From the NCBI RefSeq assembly GCF_963921235.1, contig NC_086108.1, positions 27,034,001 through 27,098,000 of the forward strand: a stretch of DNA of 64,000 bases, read 5' to 3'. The notes below the pieces were generated by a model, which worked only from the letters and a program-made list of their open reading frames with translations, did not search any database and was not told the DNA's origin. Shown here piece after piece: positions 687 to 58,085 of the stretch (within the stretch, counting starts at the first letter, position 1; each line of letters starts with the position of its first letter). Origin of the DNA: Mobula hypostoma (taxonomy: Eukaryota). The position numbers and the translations under genes were made by a program.

Positions 687-788
687 ATGCAAACAACAGG
701 AATTCTGCAGATGCTGGAAATTCAAGCAACACACATCAAAGTTGCTGGTGAATGCAGCAGGCCAGGCAGCATCTCTAGGAAGAGGTAC

Positions 789-824
789 AGTCGACGTTTC
801 AGGCCGAGACCCTTCGTCAGGACT
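789..824 (-). ncRNA. Minimal type I hammerhead ribozyme motif (PLE pLTR)
   Basis: Minus strand reads AGTC-CTGACGA-AGG gtctcgg CCT-GAAA-C-GTC-GACT: stem I AGTC/GACT, CUGANGA core, stem II AGG/CCT, GAAA, loopless palindromic stem III, GUC cleavage triplet. Confidence 0.85.
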
Positions 825-1184
825 AACTGAAGGAAGAGTTAGTAAGAGATTTGAAAGTGGGAGGGGGAGGGGGAGATCCAAAGTGATAGGAGAAGACAGG
901 AGCGGGAGGGATGGAGCCAAGAGCTGGACAGGTGATTGGCAAAGGGGATACGAGAGGATCATGGGACAGGAAGTCCGGGGAGAAAGACAAGGGCGGGGGG
1001 AACCAGAGGGTGGGCAAGGGGTATAGTCAGAGGGACAGAGGGAGAAAAAGGAGAGTGAGAGAAAGAATGTGTGTATAAAAATAAATAACGGATAGGGTAT
1101 GAGGGGGAGGTGGGGTATTAGAGAAGTCGATGTTCATCCCATCAGGTTGGAGGCTACCCAGACGGAATATAAGGTGTTGTTCCT

Positions 1185-1465
1185 GCGTCCGGTGCTCCCG
1201 ATGTGGCCTTCTATATATTGGCGAGACCCGACGCAGACTGGGAGACCGCTTTGCTGAATACCTATGCTCTGTCTGCCAGAGAAAGCAGGATCTCCCAGTG
1301 GCCACACATTTTAATTCCACATCCCATTCCCATTCTGACATGTCTATCCACGGCCTCCTCTACTGTAAAGATGAAGCCACACTCAGGTTGGAGGAACAAC
1401 ATCTTATATTCCGTCTGGGTAGCCTCCAACCTGATGGCATGAACATCGACTTCTCCAACTTCCTC
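1185..1465 (+). pseudogene. Penelope-like GIY-YIG endonuclease C-terminal fragment
   Basis: ORF 1130..1564 contains CVRCSRCGLLYIGETRRRLGDRFAE...VATHFN...LRLEEQHLIFRLGSLQPDGMN, the GIY-YIG motifs of PLE endonucleases. No RT domain is present. Confidence 0.88.
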
Positions 1466-1768
1466 GAATGCCCCACCTCCCCCTCGTACCCCATCCGTTC
1501 CGTTATTTATTTTTATACGCACATTCTTTCTCTCACTCTCCTTTTTCTCTCTCTGTCCCTCTGACTATACCCCTTGCCCAGCCTCTGGTCCCCCCCCCCA
1601 CCTTGTCTTTCTCCCCAGACCTCCTGTCCCATGATCCTCTCAAATCCCCTTTGCCAATCACCTGTCCAGCTCTTGGCTCCATCCCTCCCCCTCCTGTCTT
1701 CTCCTATCATTTTGGATCTCCCCCTCCCCCTCCCACTTTCAAATCTCTCACTAACTCTTCCTTCAGTT

Positions 1769-1804
1769 AGTCCTGATGAGGGGTCTCAGCCTGAAACGTC
1801 GACT
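1769..1804 (+). ncRNA. Minimal type I hammerhead ribozyme motif (PLE pLTR)
   Basis: AGTC-CTGATGA-GGG gtctcag CCT-GAAA-C-GTC-GACT; catalytic core intact. Confidence 0.82.
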
Positions 1805-2079
1805 GCACCTCTTCCTAGAGATGCTGTCTGGCCTGCTGCGTTCACCAGAAACTTTGATGTGTGTTGCTGTGATTTTTAGACCATTAGTTAAAATTTCAAA
1901 ATAAATTTACCACCAAAGTTCAATATACTACTTGAGATTCATTTTCTCACAGGCATTTACATGGAAAAAAGAAATACAATAGAATTCCATGAAAAACTAT
2001 ACATAAACAAAGACTGACAAGTAATCAATGTGCAAAAAGACAAATTCTTGAAATAACAAAAATCAAAAAACATAGGATT

Positions 2080-2662
2080 AGATGTTGATATCCCTTGTGC
2101 CAATGGGTCCTGTGCACTTGTTCGAGACTGCCTTGATATTGGGAATGGCATACGGTTGACATATAGGGGTTTTTAGGTGGGTACCCTCCTTCCACTACGT
2201 TTCATTGATTAGCCCATACATCTCCGGAGGGCTCTACAATGACTTCTCATATCCCAGAATCGTCCCCCTGTTGTGTCTTCCCACTCTTTTGATGCTATTT
2301 TGGAGCCCAGGAGAGCTCTTTGGATCAAGATTTCACTTGATTCATAGCTACTGACTGCTTCTTTCTGCCACTTCTGATGTGGCTATGATGGTTTGCCATA
2401 GAGGCTGACCTTGGAACCCTAACATATTTAGCAATTTGATGGTGGATTTGGCTATAAATCCTCTGCAACCCACTTTGGTTTTCCAGCCCCGTTGCTGAGC
2501 TTCAGCTACTAGATCTGCAGAGCAAAGCCTCTTCTACTCACATACTTCAGACACTGAAGCCTACCACAGGACTGTGAGTTCCACGAAGTAGACAATCTGT
2601 AATGAATTGGACCGGAGAACCAAGTCTGGCCTAAGGTTGATGGTAACAATTTCCAGTGGAAA
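2080..2662 (-). mobile_element. HERO-clade non-LTR retrotransposon 3' fragment (restriction-like endonuclease), pseudogenised
   Basis: Manual translation from 2662 downward: FPLEIVTINLRPDLVLRSNSLQIVYFVELTVLW*...DLVAEAQQRGWKTKVGCRGFIAKST...SEVAERSSQ*L*IK. The RPD...ELTV(P)W and GCRGF motifs are typical of the HERO RLE. In-frame stops keep it out of the ORF track. The 3' boundary is approximate. Confidence 0.8.
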
Positions 2663-2664
2663 GG

Positions 2665-3245
2665 TGAGACATGAGAAGCACGGAGGGACATCTTGAGAAA
2701 CTTCTGAAATGTCCGCTTTGCTGCTGCTGCTACTGTGTGATCAAGAATCTCTGGAGGGGAAGGCCCCAAATCCTCGGCTTTGCCTATTGCTTGGCGGCCG
2801 GGGCCGGGGTCGAAGCACTCGGCAGAGATGGTGCTCGGTGTTGGAGGGCTGGTCGGAGGCTCGAAGTTTTCGGAAGAACTAAAGAGTGGGCTGTGGTCGG
2901 GTGCTTCCAGGGTGCTGCATCGGCAAGTTTGCGGCACTGGAGGTTCATGGCAGGGAGAGTTTTTCTTCCTTCTACCGTCTGCGTGAGATGATGGGACTTT
3001 CGAGAGAATTGGAGACTATTTTTCCCGTGCCCATGGTCTGTTCTTTATCAAATTACGGGATTGCTTTGCACTGTTGTAACTGTATGTTATAATGATGTGG
3101 TTTTTGTCAGTTTTTCAGTCTTGGTCTGTCTTGTGTTTCTGTGATATCATACTGGAGGAACATTGTATCATTTCTTACTGCATGCATTAATAAATGACAA
3201 TAAAAGAGGACTGCGTGTCCTCATAATCTAATCTAATCTAATCTA
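2665..3245 (+). mobile_element. Non-autonomous retroelement, 5'-truncated copy (same family as 21918-22600), (AATCT)n tail
   Basis: Collinear similarity to about 22030-22600; ends in AATCTAATCTAATCTAATCT. Confidence 0.75.
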
Positions 3246-5691: not shown

Positions 5692-5704
5692 GTCTAAAAG
5701 ATGA

Positions 5705-6205: not shown

Positions 6206-6269
6206 GTATGTTAGTAGATAGTAGGAGTGTTTATTTATTTGTTTGTTTGTTTTTTGTTTATTTTTCTTT

Positions 6270-6438: not shown

Positions 6439-7725
6439 TAGTTAAGAAACTGCAAGGGTAAAAGGACATTGATGGCAATTATATACAGGCCTCCTAACTG
6501 TGACTTGGAGGTGGACTACAGATTACAACAGGAAATGGCAAAAGCAAGTCAAAAGGGCAATGTTATGGTAGTCATGGGAGATTTTAACATGCAGATCAAT
6601 TGGGAAAATCAGGCTGGTAATGGATCTTAAGAGAGTGAGTTTGTTGAATGTCTAAGAGATGGCTTTTTAGAGCAGTTTGTCATTGAGCCTACTAGGGGAT
6701 CAGCTATACTGGATTGGGTGTTATGTAATGAACCGGAGGGCGATTAGGGAGCTTACGGTAAAAGAACCCTCAGGAACCAGTGTTCACAATATGATAGAGT
6801 TCAACTTGAAATTTGATAGGGAGAAAGTAAAGTCTGATACAGAATATTTCATAGAAACATAGAAACATAGAAAATAGGTGCAGAAGTGGGCCATTCGGCC
6901 CTTCGAGCCTGCACCGCCATTCAGTATGATCATGGCTGATCATCCAACTCAGAACCCTGTACCAACCTTCCCTCCATACCCCCTGATCCCTTTAGCCACA
7001 AGAGCCATATCTAACTCCCTCTTAAATATAGCCAATGAACTGGCCTCAACTGTTTCCTGTGGCAGAGAATTCCACAGATTCACCACTCTCTGTGTGAAGA
7101 AATTTTTCCTAATCTCGGTCCTAAAAGACTTCCCCTTTATCCTCAAACTGTGACCCCTCGTTCTGGACTTCCCCAACATCGGGAACAATCTTCCTGCATC
7201 TAGCCTGTCCAATCCCTTTAGGATTTTATACATTTCAATCAGATCCCCCCTCAATCTTCTAAATTCCAATGAGTATAAGCCTAGTTCATCCAGTCTTCCA
7301 TCATATGAAAGTCCTGCCATCCCAGGAATCAATCTGGTGAACCTTCTTTGTACTCCCTCTATGGCAAGGATGTCTTTCCTCAGATTAGGGGACCAAAACT
7401 GCACACAATATTCCAGGTGTGGTCTCACCAAGGCCTTGTACAACTGCAGTAGTACCTCCCTGCTCCTGTACTCGAATCTTCTTGCTATAAATGCCAGCAT
7501 ACCATTCGCCTTTTTCACTGCCTGCTGTACCTGCATGCCCACTTTCAATGACTGGTGTATAATGATACCCAGGTCTCGTTGCACCTCCCCTTTTCCTAAT
7601 CGGCCACCATTCAGATAATTTAAATGCAAACAACAGGAATTTTGCAGATGCTGGAAATTCAAGCAACATACATCAAAGTTGCTGGTGAACGCAGCAGGCC
7701 AAGCAGCATCTATAGGAAGAGGGGC

Positions 7726-7761
7726 AGTCGACGTTTCAGGCCAAGACCCTTCGTCAGGACT
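7726..7761 (-). ncRNA. Minimal type I hammerhead ribozyme motif
   Basis: AGTC-CTGACGA-AGG gtcttgg CCT-GAAA-C-GTC-GACT on the minus strand. Confidence 0.85.
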
Positions 7762-8058
7762 AACTGAAGGAAGAGTGAGTAAGGGATTTGAAAGCTGGAG
7801 GGGGAGGGGAAGATGCAAAATGATAGGAGAAGACAGGAGGGGGAGGGATGGAGCCGAGAGCTGGACAGGTGATAGGCAAAAGGGGATACGAGAGGATGAT
7901 GGGACAGGAGGTCCAGGAAGAAAGACAAGGAGTGGGGGGTGACCCAGAGGATGGGCAAGAGGTATATTCAGAGGGACAGAGGGAGAAAAAGGAGAGTGAG
8001 GGAAAGAATGTGAGCATAAAAATGAGTAACAGATGGGGTACGAGGGGGAGGTGGGGCC

Positions 8059-8451
8059 TTAGCGGAAGTTAGAGAAGTCGATGTTCATGCCATCAGGTTG
8101 GAGGCTACCCAGACAGAATATAAGGTGTTATTCCTCCAACCTGAGTGTGGCTTCATCTTTACAGTAGAGGAGGCCGTGGATAGACATGTCAGAATGGGAA
8201 TGGGAAGTGGAATTAAAATGTGTGGCCACTGGGAGATCCTGCTTTCTCTGGCGGACAGAGCGTAGATGTTCAGCAAAGCGGTCTCCCAGTCTGCGTGGGG
8301 TCTCACCAATATATAAAAGGCCACATCGGGAGCACCGGACGCAGTATATCACCCCAGTCGACTCACAGGTGAAGTGATGCCTCATCTGGAAGGACTGTTT
8401 GGGGCCCTGAATGGTGGTAAGGGAGGAAGTGTAAGGGCATGTGTAGCACAT
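8059..8451 (-). pseudogene. Penelope-like GIY-YIG endonuclease fragment with upstream Cys motif
   Basis: CYTCPY...HFTCESTGVIYCVRCSRCGLLYIGET...LRLEE* (premature stop at 8128), then HLIFCLGSLQPDGMNIDFSNFR*. Confidence 0.88.
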
Positions 8452-8591
8452 GTGGATCCTCTCGTATCCCCTTTTGCCTATCACCTGTCCAGCTCTCGGC
8501 TCTATCCCTCCTCCTCCTGTCTTCTCCTATCATTTTGCATCTCCCCCTCCCCCTCCAGCTTTCAAATCCCTTACTCACTCTTCCTTCAGTT

Positions 8592-8627
8592 AGTCCTGAC
8601 GAAGGGTCTCGGCCTGAAACGTCGACT
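8592..8627 (+). ncRNA. Minimal type I hammerhead ribozyme motif
   Basis: AGTC-CTGACGA-AGG gtctcgg CCT-GAAA-C-GTC-GACT. Confidence 0.85.
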
Positions 8628-9569
8628 GCACCTCTTCCTATAGATGCTGCTTGGCCTGCTGCGTTCACCAGCAACTTTGATGTATGTTACCATTCAAATA
8701 ATAATCTGTTTTCCTGTTTTTGCCACCAAAGTGGATAACTTCACAGTTATCCACATTAAATTGCATCTGCCATGAATTTGCCCACTCACCTAACCTATCC
8801 AAGTCACCCTGCATCCTCTTAGCATCCTCCTCACAGCTAACACTGCCACCCAGCTTCGTGTCATCCGCAAACTTGGAGATGCTGCATTTATTTCCCTCAT
8901 CCAAGTCATTAATATATATTGTAAACAACTGGGGTCCCAGCACTGAGCCTTGCAGTACCCACTAGTCACTGCCTGCCATTCTGAAAAGGTCCCGTTTATT
9001 CCCACTCTTTGCTTCCTGTCTGCCAACCAATTCTCTATCCACATCAATACCTTACCCCCAATACTGTGTGCTTTAAGTTTGCACACTAATCTCCTGTGGA
9101 GTAAGGGTAATTATAGTGGTATGAGAGAAGAATTGGCCAAAGTAATTTAGAAGGAGCTGCTGGCAGGGATGTCAGCAGAGCAGCAATGGTGTGTGTTTCT
9201 GGGAAAAATGAGGATGGTGCAGGACACGTGTATTCGAAAAATGAAGAAATACTCAAATGGTAAAATAGTATAACCGTGGCTGTCAAGGGAAGTCAAAGCT
9301 ATTGTAAAAGCAAAAGAAAGGGCAGACAACAAAGCTGAAGCTAGTGGGAAGATAGAGGATTGCGAAGTTTTTAAAAACCTACAGACAGCAACTAAAAAAA
9401 TCATTAAAAGGGAAAAGATGAAATACCAAAGCAAGCTAGCAAATAACATCAAAGTGGATAGTAAAAGTTTTTTTCAAGTATGTTAAAAATAAAATAGAAA
9501 TGAGAGTGGACATAGGACCACTGGAAAATGAGACAGGAGAAATAATAATGAGGGACAAGGAGTTGGCTG

Positions 9570-9862: not shown

Positions 9863-12800
9863 ACAAGGAGATGGCTGATGAACTAAATGAGTATTTTGCA
9901 TCAGTCTACACTGTTGAAGACACTAGCAGTATGCCTAATGTTGTAGTGTGTGAAGGAGGAGAAGAGGGTGCAGTTACCATTACAAGAAAGAAGGTGCTCA
10001 AAAAGTTAAAAGACCTAAAAGTACATGAGACAAGAAGAACTTCACCCTAGAGTTCTGAAAGAGGTGACGTTAGAGATTGTGGTGGCATTAGAAATAATCT
10101 TTCAAAAATCATTGGACTCTAGCATGGTGCCAGAGAACTGGAAAACTGCAAATGTCACTCCACTCTTTAAGAAAGGAGGAAGGCAGTAGAAAGGAAATTA
10201 CAGGCCAGTTAGTCTGACCTCAATGGTTAGGAAGATGTTAGAGTCAATTGTTAAGGCTGAGGTGATGGAGTACTTGGTGACACAGGACAAGGTTGTACAA
10301 AGTCAGCATGGTCAGGGAAAATACTGCTTGACAAACCTGTTGGAATTCTTTGAGAAGATTACAAGCAGGATAGATAAAGGGGATGTAGTGGATGTTGCAT
10401 ATTTAAACTTTCAGAAGGCCTTTGACAAGGTGCCACACGTGAGGCTGCTTACCAAGTTAAGAGCCCATGGTATTGCAGGAAAATTACTAACACGGTTAGA
10501 GCATTGGCTGATTGGTAGGAGGCAGCGTGTGGGAATAAAAAGATCCTTTTCTGGTTGGATGCCAGTGACTAGTGGCATTCTGCAGGGGTCGGTGTTGTGA
10601 CCATTTCTTTTTATGTTGTATATAAATGACTTAGATGATAGAATAGGTGGCTTTGTTGCCAAATTTGCAGATGATACAGATTGGTGGAAGGGGCAGGTTT
10701 AGTGTTGAGGAAACAGGTAGGATGCAGAAAGACAGATTAGGAGAACGAGCAAGAAAGTGGTAATTGAAATATAATGTTGGAAAATGCATTGCCATGCACT
10801 TTGGTAGTAGAAATAAATGTGCAGACTGTTTTCTAAATGGGGAGAAAATCCAAAAATCTGAGATGCAAAGGGACTTGGGAGTCCTTGTGCAGAACACCCT
10901 TAAGGTTAACTTGCAAGTTGATTCAGTGGTGAGGAAGGCAAATGCCATGTTAGCATTCATTTCAAGAAGTATAGAATATAAGAGCAAGAATGTGATGCTT
11001 AAGTTTTACAATGCACTGGTAAGGCCTCACCTTGAGTATTATAAACACTTTGGAGCCCCTCATCTTAGAAAAGATGTGCTGGCATTGGAGAGAGTCCAGA
11101 GGAGGTTCACAAGGATGATTCTGGGAATGAAAGGGTTATCATACGAGGAACATTTGATGGCTCAGGTCTGTACTCACTGGAATTCAGAAGGAAGAGGGGA
11201 GATCTCATTGAAACCTTTCAAATGTTGAAAGGCCTAGACAGAGCAGATGTTAAAGGATGTTTCCTATGGCAGGAGAGTCTAGGATGAAATGGCACAGCCT
11301 CAGGATTGAGGGCCACCCTTTTAAAACAGAGACATGGAGAAATTTCTTCATCCAAAGGGTGGTGAACTTGTGGAATTTGTTGCCACATGCAGGTGTGGAG
11401 GCCAGGTCATTGGGTGTATTTAAGGCAGAGATTGATAGGTTCTTGATTGGACGTAGCATCAAAGGTTACGGGGAGAAGGCTGGGAACTGAGTTTGAGGAG
11501 GAGAAGAAAAAAAGGATCAGCCACGATTCATTGGCGGAACAGAATCGATGGGCCAGATGGCCTAATTCTGCTCCTACATTTTATGGTCTTATGGACTTCA
11601 GGTGGGTGAGGTGAGGGCTTTACCTGGAATGTACGTTTGGATTGGAATGGGTCAAGTAAACAGGCTGGGACGAGGCAGTCACCAGAACAGTGGTTGGGCA
11701 GTGTTAAGTCAGATGGCAGATTCACTTTGAAGAGCACAGGTCTGTATGTGTGGGGTGAGGGGTGTGAAGAGTGGGAAGGACAAGGATCATGGACCTGGGG
11801 AGCTCTGCAAGAGCCATTGTCTCTTAAAAAAGGTACACTTAAGCTAACATCCTAGCCGAAGTACTGATTCCGAGTCCCATTGCCAAAATGCCTTCCTAAC
11901 ATTGCTTAAAAAACTTTGACAGTATCCAGGGCTATTTGCATAATATTCACTCCTTTGACCTCTGACACAAAGTGGTTGAGTATTATGTGCAAAACTTCAT
12001 CAAACCCCCTTTGAGGAACTTTATTTTTTCACAATTTTGGTTCTGTCTTAGTACCCTTTGCCATGCACAGGCCCTGAATTTATTATCCAAAATCCTGGAA
12101 GTGGTTCCTATGTGTTGCATAGTGCAGGCTATTCCAGCTTCTTCTACACTAAAACTTTTAATCTACAGGAGACTTGAAGGATAAGTTGCTGGTACATCAA
12201 GCAGCAAGTACAGAATGTTCTGTCTTAAATAATCTTCATTAACCATAAATAGCATAACGTACAAAACCTTGGAGATTCTTTTTCTAGACAATTATGCTCA
12301 CCACCTAAAGCAACAGAAACAAAAATTAAAGTAGCTTTTTAAGTTCAAGAAATTCTATTTGCATTTAATTGTCATCAATGTGTAATGGTAAAATGAATCA
12401 CCAGTAACACTCAAAGTTTGCAGTATATTTGTAAAGACAGCAACTTTTGTGATACGTTACAAAATCTACAAAAAATGCATGTGTAGCTTTCAAGATTTGT
12501 ATCCAGAACAAATGGCTTTCAAGGGCATGATCTATAGAAATATATTTTTTTAAATGGCTACATATTAATTTTGCTATGAATGCATGATTGATGGCATGTG
12601 AGATAACTCCTTATTTTCAGGTTAATATGCAATTGATAATACCTTTTCATCTTCAGTTTTATTCCATCAATAAATGCCAATGAAGAGCATGTAAAACTGA
12701 GAACTTGAGAAAAACAGTCATCTGTTTTTAAAGCAGCCTGTCCTGGATTGGCATGGAATGACATAAATTAACTGACTCGGTATTAATCAATTGTTTAAAC

Positions 12801-22600: not shown

Positions 22601-22825
22601 TGAACTGCAACTTCCAACCATAATCCCACAAAAGCATTCTGACACAAGAACAATAAACAGTGCTGGTCATTAGAAATGCAGGAGCCAGTTGCCAACCGCA
22701 GCCACCCCAAGAGCACTACTATATATATGGGAGAAAGAGTTGGCAAGGATATAGAAAATTGGCCATGGCTGAAAGCTGAGCAATGCTCTGGTAGAGAGCT
22801 AGTACACAGGATGGGCTAAATAAGA

Positions 22826-23915
22826 CCATAAAATATAGGAGCAGAATTAGTCCAATCAGCCCATTGAATCTGATCTACCATTCCATCATGGCTAGTTTAT
22901 TAACCCCCCCCCCCACCAGCTCTATTCTCCTGCCTTTTCCCTATAACTTTTGATGCCTTTACTAATCAAGAACACATCAACCTCTGCTTTAATAATACTC
23001 AATGACTTGGCCTCCATAGCTCTCTGTGGCAATGAATTCGACTGATTCACTACCCTCTGGCTAAAGAAATTCCTTCTCATCTCTGTTCTAAACAGACATC
23101 CCTCAATTTTGAGGCTGTGGTCTCTAGTCCTGGACTCCCTGACTACAGGAATCATCCTCTTCACATTCGGTCTATCAAGGCCTTTCAATATTCAGTAGGT
23201 TCCAGTGAGAACCCTTTCATTTTTCCAAACCTTAGTGAGTACAGGCCCAGAGCCATCAAATGCTCTTCATTCATTAACCCTTACACAGCCAGAATCATGC
23301 TCGTCTCCAATGCCAGCACATCTTTTCTTAGATCAGGGGCCCAAAACTGCTCACAATACTCTTAAGTGCAGTCTGACCAATGTCTTATAAAGTCTCAGCA
23401 TCACATCCTTGCTCTTATGTTCTAGTCCTATCAAAATGAATACAAACATTGCATTTGCCTTCCTTACCACTGACTCAACCTGCAAGTTATTCTGTAGAGA
23501 AACCTGCCCAAGGATTCACAAGTCCCTTTCCACCTCTGATTTTTGAAATTTTTCCCTGTATAGAAAATAATCTACACTATTATTCCTTCTACCAAAGTGC
23601 ATGACAAGACACTACACTATAGTCCACCTGCCACTTCTTTGCCCATTCCCTTCAATCTGTCTAAGTACTTCTGCAGACTTCCTACTTTCTCAACACTATC
23701 CGCCTCTCCACCTATCCTTGTATCAGCCACAAAGCCATCCACTTCTTCATTCAAATTATTGACATACAACATGAAAAGAAGTAGTCCAAGGAACATCACT
23801 AGTCACCAGCAGCCAACCAGAAAAGGCCCCCTTTATGCCCATACTTTGGCTCCTGCCCAGTCAGCCAATCTTCTATCCATGCTAATATATTTTCTGCCAT
23901 ACCATGGGCTCTTGG
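22826..23915 (-). mobile_element. CR1 LINE 3' fragment
   Basis: ORFs 22922..23188 (KGLDR...RTEMRRNFFSQRVVN) and 23617..23799 (FVADTRIGG); tail GACCATAA. Confidence 0.85.
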
Positions 23916-24035
23916 TATTACAGGAAAGATATAACAGAAAATGGCCCTTACACCTCAAAATCTACCTGCTAAGGGCATTTCCACCTTATTGTCTGCCTGC
24001 ACTGAACTTTCTCTGGAACTGTAACACTATATTCT

Positions 24036-24362
24036 ACACAAACACAAGAGATTCTGCAGATCATGGAAATCCAAAGTAACACACACAAAATGCTCGAGGA
24101 ACTCTGCATGTTCGTCAGCATCTATGGAGAGGAATCAAGTCAACATTCCGGGCGACACAAAATAATCTGCAGATGCTGTTGTCAAAGGAACACTCACAAT
24201 GCGCTGGAGGAACTCAGCAGGTCAGTCAGCATCAGTTGAAAAGATTAGTCGAGGTTTCGGGCCGAAACCTTCGTCAGGACTTTAGGAAGAATTCAGGGTG
24301 ATGAAGTGTCTGAACCCGAAGCGTCGATTTTTTATGCTGAGTTCCTCCGTCATTTTGTGTAT
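24036..24362. mobile_element. Miniature palindromic pLTR-only Penelope-like insertion #5 (divergent subfamily)
   Basis: Two tandem minus-strand pLTR ends (TCTGCAGAT...GAGGAACTC.GCA) followed by a plus-strand end (GCTGAGTTCCTCC..CATTTTGTGT). TSD GT(A/T)ACACTATATTCT at 24021-24035 and 24363-24377. Confidence 0.75.
24247..24281 (-). ncRNA. Hammerhead ribozyme motif, variant
   Basis: AGTC-CTGACGA-AGG tttcgg CCC-GAAA-C-CTC-GACT; mismatches in stems II and III. A more decayed partner lies on the plus strand at about 24297-24329. Confidence 0.6.
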
Positions 24363-27527: not shown

Positions 27528-27985
27528 ATAAGATCACAAGACCATAAGATCATAAGATATAGGAGGAGAATTAGGCCATTCGGCCTATTGAGTCTGCTCT
27601 GCCATTTCATCATGGCTGATCCAATTTCCTCTCTGCCCCAATCTCCTGCCAACTCCCCAAATCCCTCTATGCCTTGACCAATCAAGAATCTATCAACCCC
27701 TAACATAAGTATACATACAGACCTGGCCTCCATGGCTGCCTGTGGCAAAAAATTCCACTGATTCACCACTGTCTGGATAAGGAAATTTCTCCTCATCTCC
27801 GTTCTAACAGGAAGCCTCTCAATTCTGAGGCTGTGTGATCGGGTCTTAGACTCTCCCACCACAGGAAATATCCTCTCCACATCTACTCTATCAAGGCCTT
27901 TCGATAAATTTCAATGAGGTCACCCCTCATTCTTCTGACTTCCAGTGAATACAGGCCTACAGCCATCAAATGCTCTTCATATAGG
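27528..27985 (-). mobile_element. CR1 LINE 3' fragment
   Basis: ORF 27434..27880 (ERIFPVVGESKTRSHSLRI...RTEMRRNF); (CATAAGA)n tail. Confidence 0.85.
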
Positions 27986-34100: not shown

Positions 34101-37100
34101 AATTTAGTGACCTATGCGGTTTTCGCTTTTTACTTTTATGCACTCTACTCTTACTTTTTCCTACACTAACTTTAGCTTTGGTCTCTACATTACTTCCCTC
34201 TTCTTTTCTGTGTGCCATATTAGTTTAAAACCTCCCTAACAGCACTAACAAACAATCTCCCGAGGACATTGATCCTGGCCGTCCCACCACCCCCAGAAGC
34301 GGTTCGAATGCCCCAAGAATCTGAAACCCTCCCTCCTGCACCACCGCCCAAGCCACATATTCATTCTAGCTATCCTGCTAGTCCAACTCTGGCTAGCATG
34401 TGGCTCTGGTAATAGAAACATAGAAACAAAGAAAATAGGTGCAGGAGTAGGCCATTTGGCCCTTCGAGCCTGCACCGCCATTCAGTATGATCATGGCTGA
34501 TCATCCAACTCAGAACCCTGTACCAGCCTTCCCCCCATACCCCCGATCCCTTTAGTCACAAGGGCCATATCTAACTCCCTCTTAAATACAGCCAAGGAAC
34601 TGGCCTCAACTGTTTCCTGTGGCAGAGAATTCCACAGGTTCACCACTCTCTGTGTGAAAAAGTTTTTCCTAATCTCGGTCCTAAAAGGCTTCCCCTTTAT
34701 CCTCAAACTGTGACCCCTCGTTCTGGACTTCCCCAACAGCGGGAGCAATCTTCCTGCATCTAGCCTGTCCAATCCCTTTAGGATTTTGTATGTTTCAATA
34801 AGATCCCCCCTCAATCTTCTAAATTCCAGCGAGTGTAAGCCTAGTCGATCCAATCTTTCATCATATGAAAGTCCTGCCATCCCAGGATTCAATCTGGTGA
34901 ACCTTCTTTATACTCCCTCTGTGGCAAGGATGTCTTTCCTCAGATTAGGGGACCAAAACTGCACACAATACTCTAGGTGTGGTGTCACCAAGGCCTTGTA
35001 CAACTGCAGTAGTACCTCCCTGCTCCTGTACTCGAATCCTCTTGCTATGAATGCCAGCACATCATTCGCCTTTTTCACCGCATGCTGTACCTGCATGCCC
35101 ACTTTCAATGACTGGTGTATAATGACACCCAGGTCTCATTGCACCTCCCCTTTTCCTAATCGGCCACCATTCAGATAATAATCTGTTTTCCTGTTTTTTC
35201 CACCAAAGTGGATAACTTCACATTTATCCACATTAAATTGCATCTGCCTTGAATTTGCCCACTCACCTAACCTATCCAAGTCACCCTGCATCCTCTTAGC
35301 ATCCTCCTCACTGCTAACACTGCCGCCCAGCTTCGTGTTATCCGCAAACTTGGAGATGCTGCATTTAATTCCCTCATCTAAGTCATTAATATATATAGTT
35401 ATCAACTGGGATCCCAGCACTGAGCCTTGCGGTACCCCACTAGTCACTGCCTGCCATTTTGAAAAGATCCAGTTTATTCCCACTCTTTGCTTCCTGTCTG
35501 CCAACCAATTCTCTATCCACATCAATACCTTACCCCCAATACCGTGTGCTTTAAGTTTGCACACTAATCTCCTGTGTGGGACCTCGTCAAAAGCCTTTTG
35601 AAAATCCAAATATACCACATCCACTGGTTCTCCCCTATCCACTCTACTAGTTACATCCTCAAAAAATTCTATGAGATTCGTCAGACATGATTATCCTTTC
35701 ACAAATCCATGCTGACATTGTCCGATGATTTCACCACTTTCCAAATGTGCTGTTATCACATCCTTGATAACTAACTCTGGCATTTTCCCCACCACCGATG
35801 TCAGGCTAACCGGTCTATAATTCCCCGGTTTCTCTCTCCTTCCTTTTTTAAAAAGTGGGGTTTCATTAGCCACCCTCCAATCCTCAGGAACTAGTCTAGA
35901 ATCTACAGAGTTTTGAAAAATTATCAGTAATGCATCCATTATTTCTTGGGCTACTTCCTTAAGCACTCTGGGATGCAGACCATCTGGCCCTGGGGATTTA
36001 TCTGCCTTTAATCCCTTCAATTTACCTAACACCACTTCCCTACTAACATGTATTTCCCTCAGTTCCTCCATCTCACTGGACCCTCTGTCCCCTACTATTT
36101 CCGAAAGATTATTTATGTCCTCCTTAGTGAAGACAGAACCAAAGTAGTTATTCAACTGGTCTGCCATGTCCTTGCTCCCCATAATCAATTCACCTGTTTC
36201 TGTCTGTAGGGGACCTACATTTGTCTTAACCAATCTTTTTCTTTTCACATATCTATAAAAGCTTTTACAGTCAGTTTTTATGTTCCCTGCCAGTTTTCTC
36301 TCATAATCTTTTTCCCCTTCCTAATTAAGCCCTTTGTCCTCCTCTGCCGGACTCTGAATTTCTGCCAGTCCTCAGGTGAGCCACTTTTTCTGACTAATTT
36401 GTATGCTTCTTCTTTGGAATTGATACTATCCCTAATTTCCCTTGTCAGCCATGGGTGCACTACCTTCCTTGATTTATTCTTTTGCCAGACTGGGATGAAC
36501 AATTGTTGAGGTTCATCCATGCGATCTTTAAATGCTTGCCATTGCATATCCACCGTCAACCCTTTAAGTGCCATTTGCCAGTCTATCTTAGCTAATTCAT
36601 GTCTCACACCTTCAAAGTTACCCTTCTTTAAGTTCAGAACCTTTGTTTCTGAATTAACTATGTCACTCTCCATCTTAATAAAGAATTCCACCATACTACG
36701 GTCACTCTTACCCAAGGGGCCTCTCACGACAAGATTGCTAATTAACCCTTCCTCATTGTTCAATACCCAGTCTAGAATAGCCTGCTCTCTAGTTGGTTTC
36801 CTCGACATGTTGGTTCAAAAAACCATCCCGCATACATTCCAAGAAATCCTCTTCCTCAGCACCCTTACCAATTTGGTTTACCCAATCTATATGTAGATTG
36901 AAGTCACCCATTATAACTGCTGTTCCTTTTTTGCACGCATTTCTAATTTCCTGTTTAATACCATCCCCAACCTCACTACTACTGTTAGATTACTACTCAC
37001 TACTACTAATAATCCTGAGATTATTACCTTTGAGGTCCTACTCTTTAATTTATCTCCTATCTCCCTAAATTCAGCTTGTAGGACCTCATCGCGCTTTCTT

Positions 37101-47097: not shown

Positions 47098-49504
47098 AAG
47101 TTAAACAAAAGACAGGAAACAGATGAATTCACAGGTTAATAAACAATGAGTACCTGCTGACAATAAACATAAATAAAAAAATATATAAATGGCTGGATAC
47201 ATTGGAAAGGTAGATGCATTCAATTGTGCAAAAGATAACTGCATATTCTATACTGAGTGAATTGAGCAATATTTTGAAGTGGATGAAATAGCCAATGAGA
47301 AGAGTGAGCCAGATTTGCTGAGTGCATTGGGTGGAAAAGCATAAAGCTTGCTTAGAAGTTTGACTGCTCCAGCCAAATCAGCTGAAATGAGCTTTGTTGA
47401 TATTGTGAGAGTAATATAGGATCAATTTGAACCAAAATCATTGCTGATTGTGGAACGCTTTAGGTTTCATAAATGGAATCAAAAGGAAGGGAAGAATATT
47501 TCAGCATATATGGCAGAATTGAAGAAGTTTTCTGAGCATTGTCAGTTCAGTAATGGGCTTAGTGATGCACTGAGAGATCATTTAGTTTGTGGAATCGTAC
47601 AAGAAAGCATTCAAGAATGGCTCCTAACTGAAGCACAACTGACATTTCAAACAAAAGTTGAAATTGCTGTATCAGTGGAAACAGCAGACGGAAATGCAAT
47701 TGAGTTGTAGTCAAGAATGAAAGTGAGCTTGAACAAAATTGCAATGTTTAAACAGTAAACGGCCTGGTCAAACAAATTTTGTTACTGTTCTGACAGGGGC
47801 TCACATACACCAGCTCAATGTAGATTTGAAGGTGAAACTTACAGAAAATGCTACAAAGTAGGACACATACAAAGAGAATATTGGCCTGACAAAAATAGGT
47901 AGACTGCTCTGGGATGAGATAAAGATAAAAAGTCATTGCAGTTCAAAATGAGCACTAATTTGCATGTTTTTGATGAAAAATCTGATAATGATGAGAGTGA
48001 CACAGGACTGTGTAGCCTTGAGACTTACAACTTGAAAACCAACAGTAGACAATCAATATGGCTTATGCCAGAAGTCAACGGCAAATATATTAAAATGGAA
48101 TTGGACACTGGGCTTGTATGTAGTAAAAACAGGAGGGCCTGCATTGTGGGAACATAAGTGGCTGAGTTAACTACAACTTGGTTGGAGATCTATCTACTAC
48201 TGCATGTCACATCACCTGTAATAGAGGCAACTAAAAGTGAATTAAGAAAAGTACTGGATGATGCTACAGCTGTGTTCAAGGACAGCATTGGAAAATGTAA
48301 ACATATCATGTGTAAAATAGTGTTAAATAAAAATACCACAAAGCCTGTCTGTTTCTAATACCATCCATAATAAAGTAGACAGTAAGCTAGATTGCATGGA
48401 AACTGAAGGAATTCTTTTTAAGTGTGACTGGAGTCCATGGGCAATGCCAGTGGTCCCAGCAGCAAGGTCAAATAGGTCTGTTAGGATCTGTGGTGATTTT
48501 AAGGTTATCATCTACCCAATACTGAAGGTAGACCAATATTCTCTGCCCAGGATAGAGGATATTTTTGCAAACCTTTCGGGATGAAAATATTTCAGCAAAG
48601 TGGACTTACCTGAGGCCTACCTACAGATGGAGATGGAAGAAGAGTCCAGTGTTTCTTACCATCAATACTCACAAAGGGCTTTATCGCTATAACAGGCTAT
48701 TTTGGAGCAGCATCTGCACCTGCACTCTGGCAGAAAGCAATGGACCAGGTGCTTCCAAGGCTGTCCAGGCACTCGGTGTTACCTGGATGGCGTCAATGTT
48801 ACTGGTAAGGATGACAAGGAGCATCTCCAAAATCTCAAGACAGTGCTAAAAATGTTAGAAGATTATGGATTCAGAGCATGACTAACAACTGTGAATTCTT
48901 TACACCACACCTCACTTACTGTGGCCACACTACTGCTACACAGTACAAGTGTGCTGAGAAAATTCCAGCAGTGGTTAATGCCCCAAGGCCAAACGGTGCA
49001 TTACAATTGTGGACTTTATAAAAATTTGTCAGTTTCTATAATAGATTCCTGCCAAACCTGGCTACGGTGCTCCACCCCTTGAATTCAATACTACAGATCA
49101 AGTAGAAATAGCAATGGACAAAGCAGTGTGAGGTGGCTTTCCAAAAGGTGAAGGAAATGGTGATGACATTTGCACATTATGATCCACATCATCCAGTGAA
49201 ACTTGCCTTGCATTGTTGCAGATGGCAACGCATCTAGAAGAAAGGTGGCCAGAACTGTCGGAACTACTTTCTGCAATCCCAGAGTCAACTCGTACAACCA
49301 CTGTGGTGGAGGCCCCAGAAACTGACACTGTTTCTCAGCCACAAATCTCACTACCAAGCAGAGTAACCTCCCCTTGTCAGGAGAGATATTATCCCACCAG
49401 AGAAAGAAAGAAATTGTGTATTTCATATTTCAGTAATATTTGAGTTATATTGTAAATAGATTGGTGAACGCAGCAGGCCAGGCAGCATCTCTAGGAAGAG
49501 GTAC

Positions 49505-49540
49505 AGTCGACGTTTCAGGCCGAGACCCTTCGTCAGGACT
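49505..49540 (-). ncRNA. Minimal type I hammerhead ribozyme motif
   Basis: Consensus AGTC-CTGACGA-AGG gtctcgg CCT-GAAA-C-GTC-GACT. Confidence 0.85.
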
Positions 49541-50273
49541 AACTGAAGGAAGAGTTAGTAAGAGATTTGAAAGTGGGAGGGGGAGGGGGAGATACAAAAT
49601 GATAGGAGAAGACAGGAGGGGGAGGAATGGAGCCAACAGCTGGACATGTGATTGGCAAAGAGGATACGAGAAGATCATGGGACAGGTGGGGCATTAGCGG
49701 AAGTTAGAGAAGTCGATGTTCATGCCATCAGGTTGGAGGCTACCCAGACGGAATATAAGGTGTTGTTCCTCCAACCTGAGTGATATACTGCGTCCGGTGC
49801 TCCCGATGTGGCCTTCTATATATTGGCGAGACCCGACGCAGACTGGGAGACAGCTTTGCTGAACACCTACGCTCTGTCCGCCAGAGAAAGCAGGATCTCC
49901 CAGTGGCCACACATTTTAATTCCACATCCCATTCTCATTCTGACATGTCTATCCACGGCCTCCTCTACTGTAAAGATGAAGCCCCCCCCTCCCCCTCGTA
50001 CCCCATCTGTTATTTATTTTTATACACACATTCTTTCTCTCACTCTTCTTTTTCTCCCTCTGTCCCTCTGACTATACCCCTTGCCCATCCTCTGGGTTCC
50101 CTCCCCCTTGTCTTTCTCCCCGGACCTCCTGTCCCATGATCCTCTCGTATCCCCTTTGCCAATCACCTGTCCAGCTGTTGGTTCCATCCCTCCCCCTCCT
50201 GTCTTCTCCTATCATTTTGTATCTCCCCCTCCCCCTCCAACTTTCAAATCTCTTACTAACTCTTCCTTCAGTT

Positions 50274-50309
50274 AGTCCTGACGAAGGGTCTCGGCCTGAA
50301 ACGTCGACT
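50274..50309 (+). ncRNA. Minimal type I hammerhead ribozyme motif
   Basis: Consensus AGTC-CTGACGA-AGG gtctcgg CCT-GAAA-C-GTC-GACT. Confidence 0.85.
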
Positions 50310-50450
50310 GTACCTCTTCCTAGAGATGCTGCCTAGTCTGCTGCGTTCACCAGCAACTTTGATGTGTGTTGCTTGAATTCCCAGCATCTGCAGAATTCCT
50401 ATTGTTTTTGTAAATAGATTGTTTGATTAAGCATTCTTTGATGCTTGTAT

Positions 50451-52447
50451 CAGGGGTCCCCGACATTTTTTGCACCGCGGACCGGTTTAATATTGACAGT
50501 AATCTTGCGGACTGGCCTACCGAGCAGTGGGGGGGTGGGGGTGGTGGCGGGGATGTTAATTAAGACCAGAATATAGGTGATAAGTCAACTATAGGTCACT
50601 TATCAGTGTATAATACACTCAATTTTGTTTCTAATAGGGTTTATCTAATGAATTTAATATTAAACACACAGCACATATTTTCCTCACATGAATATAGTGA
50701 TAAGTCAATTACGAGTCATAAGAGGGGGTTCCTTATGTCCAGTCTATTCAGCAATTTAGTTTTCGTTGCATTCACTGCAGAAAACTCTGCTTCGCAGAGA
50801 TATGATGTTGGAAAAGGAAGCAACATTTTCAGTGCTTTCGTGGCTATCTCAGGATATTCAGCCTTGACTTTGATGCGGAATGCCAGCAGAGATGTTATGT
50901 CAAACATACTTTTCAGCCCACCGTCATTTGCAAGCTCGAGAAGTTGAACTTTTTCCCGTGTTGACATGGATGATTCACCGGGGACATTCACAAATGGTTC
51001 ACGGACCCATTCCTTTGCACGTCTTGGGTCATTTGCAGTTGGGAAGTAACGCTCAAATTCTGTCGACAGCGAAGATAGGTGTTTGCGCACCAGCTGTGAG
51101 CTTCAGACTCTCCCAAATTCCCAGCTAATGTTGGGAGCATGTCAGATATGCCCCTGTCCACTTGCCATCCCCACAGTTCCAGTTTGGCTGTGAAAGCAGA
51201 CACTTTATCTGCCAACTTGAAGACAGTTGTCATTCTCCCCTGAAGTGACAAATTGAGTTCATTGAGCAGGTTGAAGATGTCACACAGATAAGCGAGTTTT
51301 GCTATCCACTCCTCGTCACTGAAGTGTGCTGCCAGTGGTGACTTTTTTCCTGAAAGAAATCTCTGTAGCTGCTCTCTTATCTCAAAAACCCTGGCCAGGG
51401 CTCTCCCCCTTGATAGCCACCTGACCTCAGTGTGTAAGAGACAACGTTTGTGCTCTGCATCCATTTCCTCGCAAAGCCGCTCAAACAGACGTGAGTTAAG
51501 GGCTTTTGCTTTGAAATGGTTGATAACTTCAACAAAGTCACTCAATACGCTGTTAAGATCAGGTGACATTTTTCGGCTAGCCGGCATTTCCCTGTGTGTG
51601 ACACAGTGTGTAGACTGGCAGTCAGGAGCAACCTCTTTGAGTCGGGTAGTGAAACCAAACTCATTAAGCCGTTCCAACAGCTGTGCTTTGATATCTTCCG
51701 CTATGTCATCGATTCTCCTTGAAACTGTGGTAGCTGAAAGAGAAACCTGTGCCATCTTGTTAGCTGCAGCTTCTCCCAACAGTTCACGGCACATGTCCTT
51801 GGCAGCAGACAGAATCAATTCTTCACCAACAGTGAAAGACTTCCTAGCCTCAGCAAAATGGCTAGCCACTAAGTACGACGCTCTCAGAGCAGCAGCATTT
51901 GTGGATGTGGTGACTCTCAGCACTTGCTTCTGTCTTGCTTGCTCACGTTTTTTCCGCTCAGAAAACTCAACGGGTTTGTCTTTAAGTGCAGGGTGCTTGG
52001 ACTCAAGGTTCCAATGCAGTTTTGAGGGCTTCATTGCCTCATTAGACAGCTTGTCTCCACATATCACACACAGGGGGCTTGGAGCGTGCGAGTCACCAGT
52101 CACAATAAAGCCATATTTTATGTATGACTCGTCGTATTTTCTGTTGAAGGAAACTTTCTTTTTTTTTGCAGTCTCGGCCTCAGCTGTCTCTGCGTTACCA
52201 TAATCGTTAGGCCTTTTATGTCCCATACCATCTCTTCCAAAGAAACTCTCGAGCGGCGTTTGTTTCTTTACTCATTGAGTAGTTGTAGGTTAATGACCGA
52301 CTGATGTCCTCGCGTGGGTAATGACCTAGCGTGCGTTCAAGTTCAACAGTGGGTGTGACATGGAACGAGAAAAGGTGCGGTTGACTCATATCATTTCCTC
52401 ACGGCCCGGTAGCACATGTTTTGCGGCCCGGTGGTTGAGGACCACTG
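50451..52447 (-). mobile_element. hAT DNA transposon (Buster/Charlie subfamily), internally deleted
   Basis: TIRs CAGGGGTCCCCGAC / (rc) CAGTGGTCCTCAAC; 8-bp TSD GCTTGTAT (50443-50450) / GCTTATAT (52448-52455). Confidence 0.92.
50716..52275 (-). pseudogene. Buster-type hAT transposase (ZBED5/SCAND3-like), frameshifted and internally deleted
   Basis: BED finger RKYDESYIKYGF...PLCVICGDKLSNEAMKPSKL; HCVTHRE; HTEVRWLSRG; C-terminal dimerisation domain LLPFPTSYLCEAEFS in another frame (50716..51090). Likely true ATG at 52273-52275, offset by a 1-nt indel. Confidence 0.9.
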
Positions 52448-53620: not shown

Positions 53621-53849
53621 TTCTATCAAATCAATATCCAAAAATATATATAACTGAGTATAGTATTTGCCTAAACTATTTCAAGTGAGGGCCAGTTCCA
53701 CACTGAATTTATTGTCATATGCACAAACATATGAATGCCAGGTGTAATGAAACACTTGCTTACGACAGTATCACAGGCACTTGGCATCATGGACAAAATA
53801 TTCACAAAGTAAACAAATAAAGCAAAAAAAATACAGTATTATACTAAAA

Positions 53850-55668: not shown

Positions 55669-55789
55669 TCATCACATTTGCTGATGCACTCTGGAAAACA
55701 AAAAACGACACCAGTCAAAGCCGACGAGGAAGTGCTCAGGACACATTGATTTGTTGCTGTTCTTCCTTTCCGCACTTTGTGATGCATTC

Positions 55790-55960
55790 AGTGGGAAACT
55801 TGCTGTTTCTTTAGCATTTTAATTTTTTTTTACGAGGCAGAATTGCTAGCTCGGCGCTCAACCTAGCACAGATGGAAAGCGTGCAAGGAGTCGGCCGTGT
55901 TTGCATCCGGGGTCACTCACCTCGAGGTCCGGTGTGGTGCCACGACACCACCAGCCAGCC
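55790..55960 (-). mobile_element. Second copy of the 53850-54063 SINE family
   Basis: Reverse complement of the head and body (GGCTGGCTGGTGGTGTCGTGGC...CCTTGCACGCTTTCCATC...GCTAGCAATTCTGCCTCGTAAAAA). Confidence 0.7.
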
Positions 55961-56615
55961 AATGGTTTGTTAGTCATTAAATCTGCCAGTGTATTTAGTT
56001 CAGAGTACAAGATTCTTCGTGAAAATGGTAGGGGTTGGGTGTGGTGGAATGTGTCTGTAGTTGGTCATAGGAGGGACTCGTTTGGGGGTGGAGGTGATAT
56101 ATGTGGGTATGGTTGGGAGAGGGTTTTGCTGAAAGGAAATCTCTTCACCTAAATGTAATAGGACTCAGCTTTTGACATCTTCATTTTGACACCCACCCAG
56201 TAGCCTTCGTCATCCAGCATGTGTTTTTTTAAAGTTCCTCAGTTCTAGCAATAGAAACTATATCTGAAGGCTAGAAGGAGAATAGAAGGATGGCATGCTA
56301 AGCAAACAGCAGATTGTTGTGCTCTATTCTGGGCAATACCCAGCAGAATGAATGACTGGGTCTTATGACTTAATAATATTTTGCTGAGTTTTTTTGTTAG
56401 AACAGAAAGGGTTAAGATGAAAACCTCGGCAATATCCAAAACATGACGATTTTTTTTGATAAAAAGAAATTGATAGGTTATTTCCAGAGGCAGAATAATC
56501 AGTGAAAACAGATTTGGGTGATTGGATGAAGAACCAGAGGTAACTTTTTACCTAGCACACTGCGTTAATCTGAAATGCATTGCTGAAAGAGTGCTAGAAG
56601 CTGAGTAAATAGTAC

Positions 56616-56651
56616 AGTCGATGTTTCAGGCCGAGACCCTTCGTCAGGACT
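56616..56651 (-). ncRNA. Hammerhead motif, mutated (GAAAC-ATC)
   Basis: Core CTGACGA/GAAA intact, but the cleavage triplet is GTC>ATC, which breaks the stem III palindrome. Confidence 0.6.
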
Positions 56652-56888
56652 AACTGAAAGAAGAGCTAGAAAGAGATTTGAAAGTGGGAGGGGGAGGGGG
56701 AGATCCGAAATGATAGGAGAAGACAGGAGAGGGAGGGATGGAGCTAAGAGCTGGAAAGTTGATTGGCAAAAGGGATATGAGACTGGAGAAGGGAGAGGAT
56801 CATGGGACGGGAGGGCTAGGGAGAAAGAAAGGGGGAGGGGGGAAGCCCAGAGTATGGGCAAGGGGTATAGTGAGAGGGACAGAGGGAG

Positions 56889-56894
<6 letters not shown>

Positions 56895-56951
<57 letters not shown>
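56895..56951 (+). repeat. (GA)n microsatellite inside the PLE arm
   Basis: About 25 GA units. Confidence 0.9.
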
Positions 56952-56955
<4 letters not shown>

Positions 56956-57651
56956 TAAATAAATAAGGGATGGGGAAGGAAGGGGAGGTGGGCCATTAAC
57001 TGAAGTTAGAGAAGTCAATGTTCATGCCATCAGGTTGGAGGCTACCCGGATAGAATATAAGGTGTTGTTCCTCCAACCTGAGTGTGGCTTCATCTTGAGA
57101 GTAGAGGAGGCCGTGGATAGATATATCATAATGGGAATGGGATGTGGAATTAAAATGTGTGGCCATTCTGATGATCTCCCAGTGGCCACACATTTTAATT
57201 CCACATCCCATTCCCATTCTGATATGTCTAACAATGGCCTCCTCTACTCTCATGATGAAGCCACACTCAGGTTGGAGGAACAACACCTTATATTCTGTCT
57301 GAGTAGCCTCCAACCTGATGGCATGAACATTGACTTCTCAAACTTCCGCTAATGCCCCACCTCCCCCTCGTACCCCATCTGTTATTTATTTATATACACA
57401 CATTCTTTTTCTCTCTCTCCTTTTTCTCCCTCTGTCCCCCTCACTATACCCCTTGCCCATCCTCTGGGCTTTCCCCCCCTCCCCCTTTTCTTTCCCTCTA
57501 GGCCTCCTGTCCCATGATCCTCTCATCTCCCTTTTGCCAATCAACTTTCCAACTCTTGGCTCCATCCCTCCCTCTCCTGTCTTCTCCTATCATTTCGGAT
57601 CTCCCCCTCCCCCTCCCACTTTCAAATCTCTTACTAGCTCTTCTTTCAGTT

Positions 57652-57687
57652 AGTCCTGACGAAGGGTCTCGGCCCAAAACGTCAACT
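57652..57687 (+). ncRNA. Hammerhead motif, probably inactive (GAAA>AAAA)
   Basis: AGTC-CTGACGA-AGG gtctcgg CCC-AAAA-C-GTC-AACT; the catalytic G is lost. Confidence 0.5.
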
Positions 57688-58085
57688 GCACCGCTTCCTA
57701 GAGATGCTGCTGGGCTGCTGTGTTCACCAGCAACTTTTATGTGTGTTGCTTGAAATTCCAGCATCTGCAGATTTCCTCCTGTCTGAGCTGAGTAAATAGT
57801 TCACTTTGTAAGAAAATTTGGTAAATACCTGACAAATCTTAGCTTCAAGGCACTTGGAGCAAAACTTGGAGCTCACGTAGATGCAAAAGAAATCACACAG
57901 AACTGCAAACATTAGCTGCTGGGAATGAGCCCCATTCCTCAGTCTGCCTGCGGCCCTGAATCTCAGTCCACCGTGGAGTAGCTCCCAAGCTCAGTACCAC
58001 AGATACTGACTAATAGAATTGCTACGAAATCAAGTACACACCACTGTCAGTGTTAGTGTTGGGATGCTGAATGTAATTTCATAAT

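Follow-up and report, generated by a model that had tools for sequence, protein, structure and literature searches.

Palindromic Penelope-like insertions in Mobula hypostoma point to a symmetric 14-nt target cut primed at both ends

A stretch of 64,000 nucleotides from Mobula hypostoma (NC_086108.1, positions 27,034,001 to 27,098,000, here called the window) contains five insertions in which pieces of a Penelope-like element (PLE) stand in inverted orientation within a single target-site duplication (TSD), which raises the question of how one insertion can be bounded by an element 3' end on both sides. An earlier note, made from the letters of the window, proposed that each palindrome is one integration event in which both 3'-OH ends of a cut staggered by 14-15 nt primed reverse transcription. 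We followed this proposal through about 2 Mb of sequence in total from this one 3.48-Gb genome. TSD statistics, the symmetry of the target half-sites and an empty paralogous site bear it out, and we regard two-ended priming, in whatever form, as highly probable. We hold with reasonable but lesser confidence a fuller model, in which each palindrome is one insertion made through a concerted two-nick cut, with both ends priming at two different start sites on one RNA.

Self-comparison of the window and mapping of its arms onto a natural full-length element found elsewhere in this genome showed that insertions 1, 2, 4 and 5 (687-1867, 7620-8688, 49464-50407 and 56614-57785) each join a minus-strand left arm to a plus-strand right arm of one element (Table 1; element positions are numbered from the hammerhead cleavage site, set to 0). 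All arms of these four young insertions are element 3' ends that meet at their 5'-truncated ends, as first described, and a single TSD of 14-15 bp encloses each palindrome. The earlier note had counted five insertions of one architecture, which holds for these four; insertion 3 (24036-24362) has a comparable TSD but is older and diverged, lacks endonuclease sequence, carries decayed hammerheads and contains three pieces of the pseudo-long terminal repeat (pLTR) in the order minus/minus/plus, and insertion 4 is made of four segments. The outer ends of a window palindrome are not equivalent, as one bears a tail of about 36 nt and the other none. Insertion 2 splits a long interspersed nuclear element (LINE), whose uninterrupted sister copy in the window contains the target 14-mer once.

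The census drew on arbitrary regions, comprising 1.41 Mb outside the window, and on 59 loci chosen via search hits; 0.4 Mb of the 1.41 Mb served as a hold-out that was fetched once the predictions were fixed. A first set of 123 clusters with a 3' end at at least 85% identity, from which region-edge and less similar clusters were excluded, comprised 55 palindromes and 68 single-arm copies (singles). A direct repeat scoring at least 10, our TSD call for palindromes, flanked 49 of the 55, compared with 5 of 2970 mismatched flank pairs that served as the null. Palindrome TSDs were 13-15 bp long in 39 of 50 cases and 14-15 bp in 27, with a mode of 14, so that the peak lies at 13-15 bp; in the hold-out, six of seven palindromes had a TSD of 12-15 bp. 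A TSD implies that the cut left 3' overhangs. On its own strand, each flank tended to have T at +7 on the 3' side of the inferred nick (32/46 and 36/46 flanks; pooled, 68/92 versus a background of 28.9%), with further T enrichment at +8 (53/92), +6 (48/92) and +3 (53/92) and background levels at +4 and +5. In the hold-out, T occupied +6, +7 and +8 in 7, 8 and 7 of 12 flanks, respectively.

Singles carry traces of the same geometry. Those with a detected TSD (n = 27) had a mean TSD length of 12.0 bp, versus 13.8 bp for palindromes (p 0.002), and in 18 of them the T of the far half-site lay 14 + 7 = 21 nt from the primed junction. Among the 13 singles with a TSD of 11 bp or shorter, 10 had T at this distance from the primed junction, and just 4 had it at the place expected by counting from the end of the TSD. 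These data are most simply explained by a single cut of fixed, two-fold symmetric geometry, with trimming of whichever overhang went unprimed in singles. Judged from these alignments, the cut geometry, that is, a 14-nt spacing between mirrored T-rich half-sites, is well supported. In a published account, PLE TSD length is set by a variable second cut after target-primed reverse transcription (TPRT; PMC8557442), whereas the spacing in this family is fixed near 14 nt.

We also examined where the arms end. Outer ends concentrate at +100 to +103 (32/49) and at +63 to +68 (31/50), and a tail is present on exactly one arm in 53 of the 55 palindromes, all 7 in the hold-out, all 11 from older families and window insertion 5 (pooled, 72/74). 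Both end types are used by singles (20 tailed, 27 tail-less), and +65 is therefore a start in its own right. Microhomology between primer and template averaged 1.1 and 1.4 nt at the two ends, versus 0.5 nt by chance, and was zero at 20 of 49 and 16 of 50 ends; pairing this slight, and often absent, led us to reject primer pairing as a requirement. The two exceptions to the one-tail pattern are tail/tail clusters without a TSD (L081:1960-3934 and L084:5986-8015). They may be examples of another origin, in which a second copy homes into the 5' end of the first, a later inversion occurs or an assembly is at fault, and an in vitro study reports that a PLE endonuclease can cut its own pLTR (PMC11167929). 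As an account of the palindromes we consider such an origin barely plausible, given the single TSD around both arms, the empty paralogous site, arms alike in age and subfamily, seams that are unique and arms that have diverged; tail-to-tail neighbours were sought, and none were found. In L081, a 14-bp repeat connects position 3934 to about 1960, and this cluster may be a nested or three-part insertion.

The end positions also bear on fold-back, the interpretation already in print, in which one cDNA folds back and copies itself (or an antisense RNA does so, as PMC3846280 proposes) and the resulting hairpin is joined to the other target end. A copy made in this way could neither outgrow its template nor acquire a tail, yet it is the tail-less arm that reaches deeper toward the element 5' end in 23 of 44 pairs and, within the hold-out, in 6 of 7, very young pairs included. 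The outer end of the tail-less arm is also the end used by singles, which suggests a start site rather than a copy stop. Neither arm is regularly longer (tailed in 18 palindromes, tail-less in 29; p 0.14), an outcome that speaks against a tailed cDNA folding back as the principal route. In favor of fold-back, the tailed arm is the longer one in four of five near-equal long pairs, some seams (13/44) show overlaps of 1-3 nt, and centre flips through recombination could weaken the argument from arm lengths. On balance we consider this route improbable.

The two arms of a palindrome resemble each other in source and in length class. They match at 370 of 406 subfamily-diagnostic sites, versus 56% across insertions. 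When arms whose 5' end lies at or after -50 are classed as short and all others as long, both arms were short in 16, both long in 36 and mixed in just 4 of 56 palindromes; arbitrary regions together with the hold-out gave 10 short, 18 long and 3 mixed pairs (p 1.5e-5). Arm lengths are correlated overall (rho 0.66) because of these two classes, and the correlation is gone among long arms; nevertheless, in 5 of 25 long pairs the two stops lie no more than 25 nt apart (permutation mean 0.8, p 0.0006). The 5' ends accumulate at -50 to -26, with 24 of 158 arms there versus 6 and then 2 in the adjoining upstream bins, and on inspection the ends of these stubs are scattered from -48 to -21. Initiator-like motifs lie at -46 and -31, and the stubs may therefore be run-offs at the 5' end of the RNA. 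The seams (n = 44) comprised 13 overlaps of 1-3 nt, 4 blunt joins, 21 with filler and 6 longer apparent overlaps, a spectrum as end-joining would give; among 12 fillers of at least 7 nt, 2 resembled nearby sequence more closely than the null would give (<=0.03).

In L1 twin priming, a single RNA is primed from both of the target nicks, which leaves an inversion under one TSD. The two arms then derive from different parts of the RNA, whereas here both derive from the same 3' region, with starts about 36 nt apart. A variant in which the two target ends prime on an RNA with terminal repeats, one at its downstream pLTR and the other at the upstream copy, would be compatible with the direct 5' pLTR of some full-length copies (L022, L025, L029 and L036) and with the mixed palindromes. 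It predicts mostly long-plus-short pairs, which are rare; 36 of 56 palindromes instead pair two long arms, often with endonuclease sequence in each, and we find the variant very hard to credit. Twin priming in its L1 form was rejected, as every palindrome counted has arms that overlap in one 3' region rather than representing non-overlapping parts of the RNA.

A closer competitor keeps the concerted cut and two-ended priming but has the two ends copy separate RNA molecules transcribed from one master locus, with the order of priming or an asymmetric dimer fixing +101 versus +65. It is compatible with the TSD, the symmetric site and the shared subfamily variants, makes strand displacement unnecessary, and accounts both for partly discordant arms and for the uncorrelated lengths of long arms. 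It gives no simple reason for the near-constant single tail, and it leaves the scarcity of short-plus-long pairs and the excess of near-equal long arms unexplained. We prefer one RNA because a symmetric dimer with two RNAs offers no obvious reason for one start of each kind, and we consider the two-RNA version unlikely.

The one-RNA model would proceed as follows. The element protein, probably as a dimer acting in concert, would nick both strands 14 nt apart and leave 14-nt 3' overhangs, each nick having on its 3' side a T-rich half-site (T at +7, +8 and +6, less surely +3); the spacing and symmetry are read from the aligned flanks. One end would then start near +101, giving the tail, and the other near +65, giving the tail-less end, with little or no primer pairing; the end positions are as observed, and that they represent starts of reverse transcription is suggested by analogy with the in vitro assay of the anole element PAc discussed below. 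The two reverse transcriptases (RTs) would work on one RNA within a shared pLTR copy, with the RT behind peeling off the cDNA made by the one ahead. If that copy is the 5' pLTR, they would run off the RNA 5' end and produce stubs; if it is the downstream one, they would produce long arms, for which the RNA would have to continue beyond this pLTR, by read-through or as a circle. Copying in tandem would require a strand-displacing RT, and strand displacement is known for R2-type RTs. The cDNA 3' ends would then be united by end-joining and the gaps filled. Where one end failed to prime or lost its cDNA, a single arm would result, and trimming of the unprimed overhang would shorten the TSD while leaving the spacing as observed in singles. 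Whether the whole constitutes a route distinct from LINE-type TPRT, with a dimer, a symmetric double cut, fixed 14-nt 3' overhangs and two RT domains simultaneously copying one RNA from starts about 36 nt apart, we judge to be evenly balanced.

Several observations weigh against this model or parts of it. The T at +3 was not replicated in the hold-out (4/12), where +4 was T in 9 of 12 flanks. A TSD was detectable in just 27 of 65 singles examined, at a score threshold of at least 9 that censors short TSDs. In a few palindromes the arms are partly discordant, matching at 9 of 14 and 10 of 15 diagnostic sites, as if a second template were occasionally used. Within the hold-out alone, concordance of length class (6/7) was non-significant (p 0.14), and among long arms the 5' stops are uncorrelated overall (Spearman 0.10, p 0.62). 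Arms that recombined with each other after insertion could have had their centre turned around and become more alike, so that their similarity would be inflated. The support comes from sequence rather than from biochemistry or structure of this family, and PAc, which belongs to the Poseidon clade, shows no difference in start sites between strands in the available part of its description, so strict pairing of one start of each kind is unsupported there (PMC11167929).

We next consider how common the palindromes are, as to the earlier note they looked like the normal mode of insertion. They make up 27 of 65 young insertions in the arbitrary regions outside the window (42%, confidence interval (CI) 29-54%), or 20 of 39 (51%, CI 35-68%) at a stricter cut-off of 90% identity and 45 bp. 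Young insertions are thus about half palindromic, with single-arm and direct-tandem copies roughly as frequent, and palindromes are not the sole mode. The census rule undercounts them somewhat, as some apparent singles have an inverted arm of 14-23 nt or a partner separated by a later insertion. Young palindromes occur at about 19 per Mb, so the window (4 in 64 kb) has about three times the average density, and a rough extrapolation gives about 6-7 x 10^4 in the genome. A miniature inverted-repeat transposable element, or any palindromic unit mobile as a whole, was rejected as their source, as long palindromes differ in seams and ends. Two pairs of stub palindromes, joined just upstream of the hammerhead, do share a seam while differing in outer ends and TSDs: G000:C62:20097803 and L113:959, and G000:C50:26984018 and L108:883. 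These are recurrent independent joins at one spot.

The element itself is an endonuclease-bearing (EN+) PLE. A genome search with the endonuclease fragment gave 176,472 first-look candidates, of which 150 were scored. Natural candidates exist for the autonomous copy that the earlier note proposed to reconstruct: of 20 loci selected for their long open frames, 5 have stop-free frames of 992-1064 codons that span RT and endonuclease. The statement that no copy retains RT is accordingly confined to the window, where tblastn hits to the 1064-codon frame of locus L025 covered residues 936-1064 and 1-46 and nothing else. This frame combines an RT with a C-terminal GIY-YIG domain (RVT_1 E 6e-5, GIY-YIG E 6e-4, both below Pfam cut-offs) and carries DKG and YIDD motifs, and the main tblastn hits of the window arms are 78-98% identical to its C-terminus. 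EN+ PLE endonucleases are defined by two cysteines between GIY and YIG, part of a CCHH motif (PMC8557442); L025 has CxxC between its GIY-like and YIG motifs and R..EH downstream, the second His not being separately placed. The same source defines the Neptune and Nematis clades by CX2-5CxxC in the RT-EN linker, and judged by this motif alone (C-X4-C-X2-C at residues 883-891) the element fits a Neptune-like assignment under the Neptune or Nematis definition. Its nearest named relative is a bamboo-shark protein (71% identity).

Full-length copies bear a direct 5' pLTR or an inverted arm, in some cases the two together, and the tail is about 36 nt long. An in-frame ATG at +61 to +63 (L029:5565-5680; L022:5595), which is GTG in older subfamilies, coincides with the tail-less end, and the tail would therefore encode the first residues of the open reading frame. 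Contigs of four sequencing runs cover the element; such contigs are uninformative on RNA ends. A minimal hammerhead motif occurs in all eight arms of the four young window insertions, with core boxes and cleavage triplet exact in six, which agrees with the two motifs first noted per palindrome; they do not cap the palindromes but sit 6-110 nt inside the outer ends. An Rfam scan of the window returned no match to a hammerhead model, just generic hairpin (miRNA-type) matches below gathering scores, and the minimum free energy fold of the monomer did not form a hammerhead. The motifs resemble the minimal type-I hammerheads of metazoan PLE pLTRs in their core boxes and palindromic, near-absent helix III, to which, as motifs, they add nothing new (PMC4209133). 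Hammerhead cleavage as the origin of the ends was rejected, as the ends lie 6-113 nt downstream of the cleavage site, which thus does not mark them; the hammerheads appear to be inherited passengers.

This architecture has been described before. Inverted 5'-truncated copies with one TSD and a one-sided tail appear for Adineta Pen2a_Av (PMC3846280), for Drosophila virilis Penelope (PMC2377424, Fig. 1C legend) and in a scheme (PMC8557442, Fig. 2); PMC3846280 offers self-priming as the cause of inverted insertions, and PMC8557442 terms the formation of tandem and inverted PLE insertions undefined. Like the published inverted-pLTR insertions of EN+ PLEs, ours have a head-to-head joint, one TSD around the unit and a 30-40 bp tail at one end only, and full-length copies likewise show direct partial tandems. 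The TSDs in the published single examples are 8-10 bp, as opposed to about 14 nt with mirrored half-sites here, and the one-sided tail, close to a rule in this family, goes beyond those examples. The palindromic layout is therefore already known, and this family adds a symmetric cut of fixed spacing and the near-constant restriction of the tail to one arm. Our search of the published literature, to which older subscription papers were external, found no two-ended model, fixed stagger or symmetric target for PLEs, and the available part of a retrozyme preprint (10.64898/2026.07.22.740005) does not treat inverted insertions.

The closest biochemical system is PAc, a Poseidon element from Anolis carolinensis. 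In vitro, PAc cleaves and extends both strands with a preference for AT-rich sites, and begins reverse transcription internally at two sites that bound the tail, without homology to the target; hammerhead cleavage is dispensable and a dimer is predicted (PMC11167929). PAc is from another clade, and in the available part of that paper its start sites are not tied to stagger length, to inverted insertions or to the opposite ends of a target. Any mechanism must now meet the numbers given here: nicks 14 nt apart between mirrored half-sites, a tail at one end and none at the other, and arms that agree in their source and in length class. The undefined step in PLE insertion thereby becomes a specific assay question for an existing in vitro system, made testable by the stop-free RT and endonuclease copies in this genome. 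If the route with a dimer and two starts on one RNA is true, a single mechanism would cover the head-to-head layout, the tail on one side, the stub palindromes and variable single-copy TSDs across PLEs. PLE RTs form the sister group of telomerase and are candidate gene-writing tools, for which a double cut primed at both ends would be relevant. At their density, young palindromes also contribute much hairpin-prone DNA to this genome.

Table 1. Palindromic insertions in the window and their parts
Feature	Position	Strand	Details
Insertion 1, left TSD	673-686	+	14 bp, exact match to 1868-1881
Insertion 1, tailed arm	687-1184	-	element -401 to +106; hammerhead 790-820
Insertion 1, tail-less arm	1183-1867	+	element -610 to +67; GIY-YIG fragment 1184-1462; hammerhead 1773-1803
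Insertion 1, right TSD	1868-1881	+	14 bp
Insertion 2, left TSD	7606-7619	+	14 bp, one mismatch versus 8689-8702; target is a LINE remnant
Insertion 2, tailed arm	7620-8453	-	element -719 to about +110; GIY-YIG fragment 8062-8448; hammerhead 7727-7757
Insertion 2, tail-less arm	8455-8688	+	element -168 to +65; hammerhead 8596-8626
Insertion 2, right TSD	8689-8702	+	14 bp
Paralogous empty site of insertion 2	35166-35179	+	target 14-mer once, in uninterrupted sister LINE copy
Insertion 3 (older family) with TSD	24021-24377	.	TSD 24021-24035/24363-24377, 15 bp, one mismatch
Insertion 3, tailed pLTR piece	about 24036-24150	-	no coding sequence in insertion 3
Insertion 3, middle pLTR piece	about 24151-24290	-	
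Insertion 3, tail-less pLTR piece	about 24298-24362	+	
Insertion 4, left TSD	49450-49463	+	14 bp, exact match to 50408-50421
Insertion 4, tail-less arm, two segments	49464-49782	-	element -413 to -316 and -181 to +45; hammerhead 49506-49536
Insertion 4, tailed arm, two segments	49780-50407	+	element -618 to -415 and -326 to +102; GIY-YIG fragment 49780-49983; hammerhead 50278-50308
Insertion 4, right TSD	50408-50421	+	14 bp
Insertion 5, left TSD	56599-56613	+	15 bp, exact match to 57786-57800
Insertion 5, tail-less arm	56614-57165	-	element -494 to +6; hammerhead 56617-56647, cleavage triplet changed
Insertion 5, tailed arm	57173-57785	+	element -504 to +103; hammerhead 57656-57686, core substitution
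Insertion 5, right TSD	57786-57800	+	15 bp

Some insertions are rearranged internally. In insertion 4 the skips are reciprocal: the right arm lacks -415 to -326, nearly identical to the stretch -413 to -316 that the left arm retains, and the left arm lacks -316 to -181. Two RTs leapfrogging along one RNA could produce such skips, as could subsequent inversions and deletions; splicing was rejected, as no consistent GT-AG ends were seen. At L148 (G000:C22:30072502-30074727), the tailed arm runs from +104 to -342, restarts at the second start site, covering +69 to -88, and resumes at -332, an apparent case of template jumps back to an RT start site inside one insertion. In the left arm of insertion 5, a (GA)n expansion at 56898-56945 takes identity down to 80%, and this insertion is absent from the automatic young set for that reason.

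The window contains other repeats. By eye, a 427-codon frame at 50988-52271 on the minus strand looks like a remnant of a hAT-type DNA transposase. LINE remnants, CR1/L2-like by eye, occupy 6851-9098, 10040-11598, 22820-23913, 27538-27982, 31193-36959 and 59999-61519, with long RT frames at 35136-36814 and 59999-61519. A dispersed repeat forms an inverted pair (29449-30418 and 47101-48111, 71% identity) with an 84-bp hairpin at 29523-29606, and is possibly an old DNA transposon.

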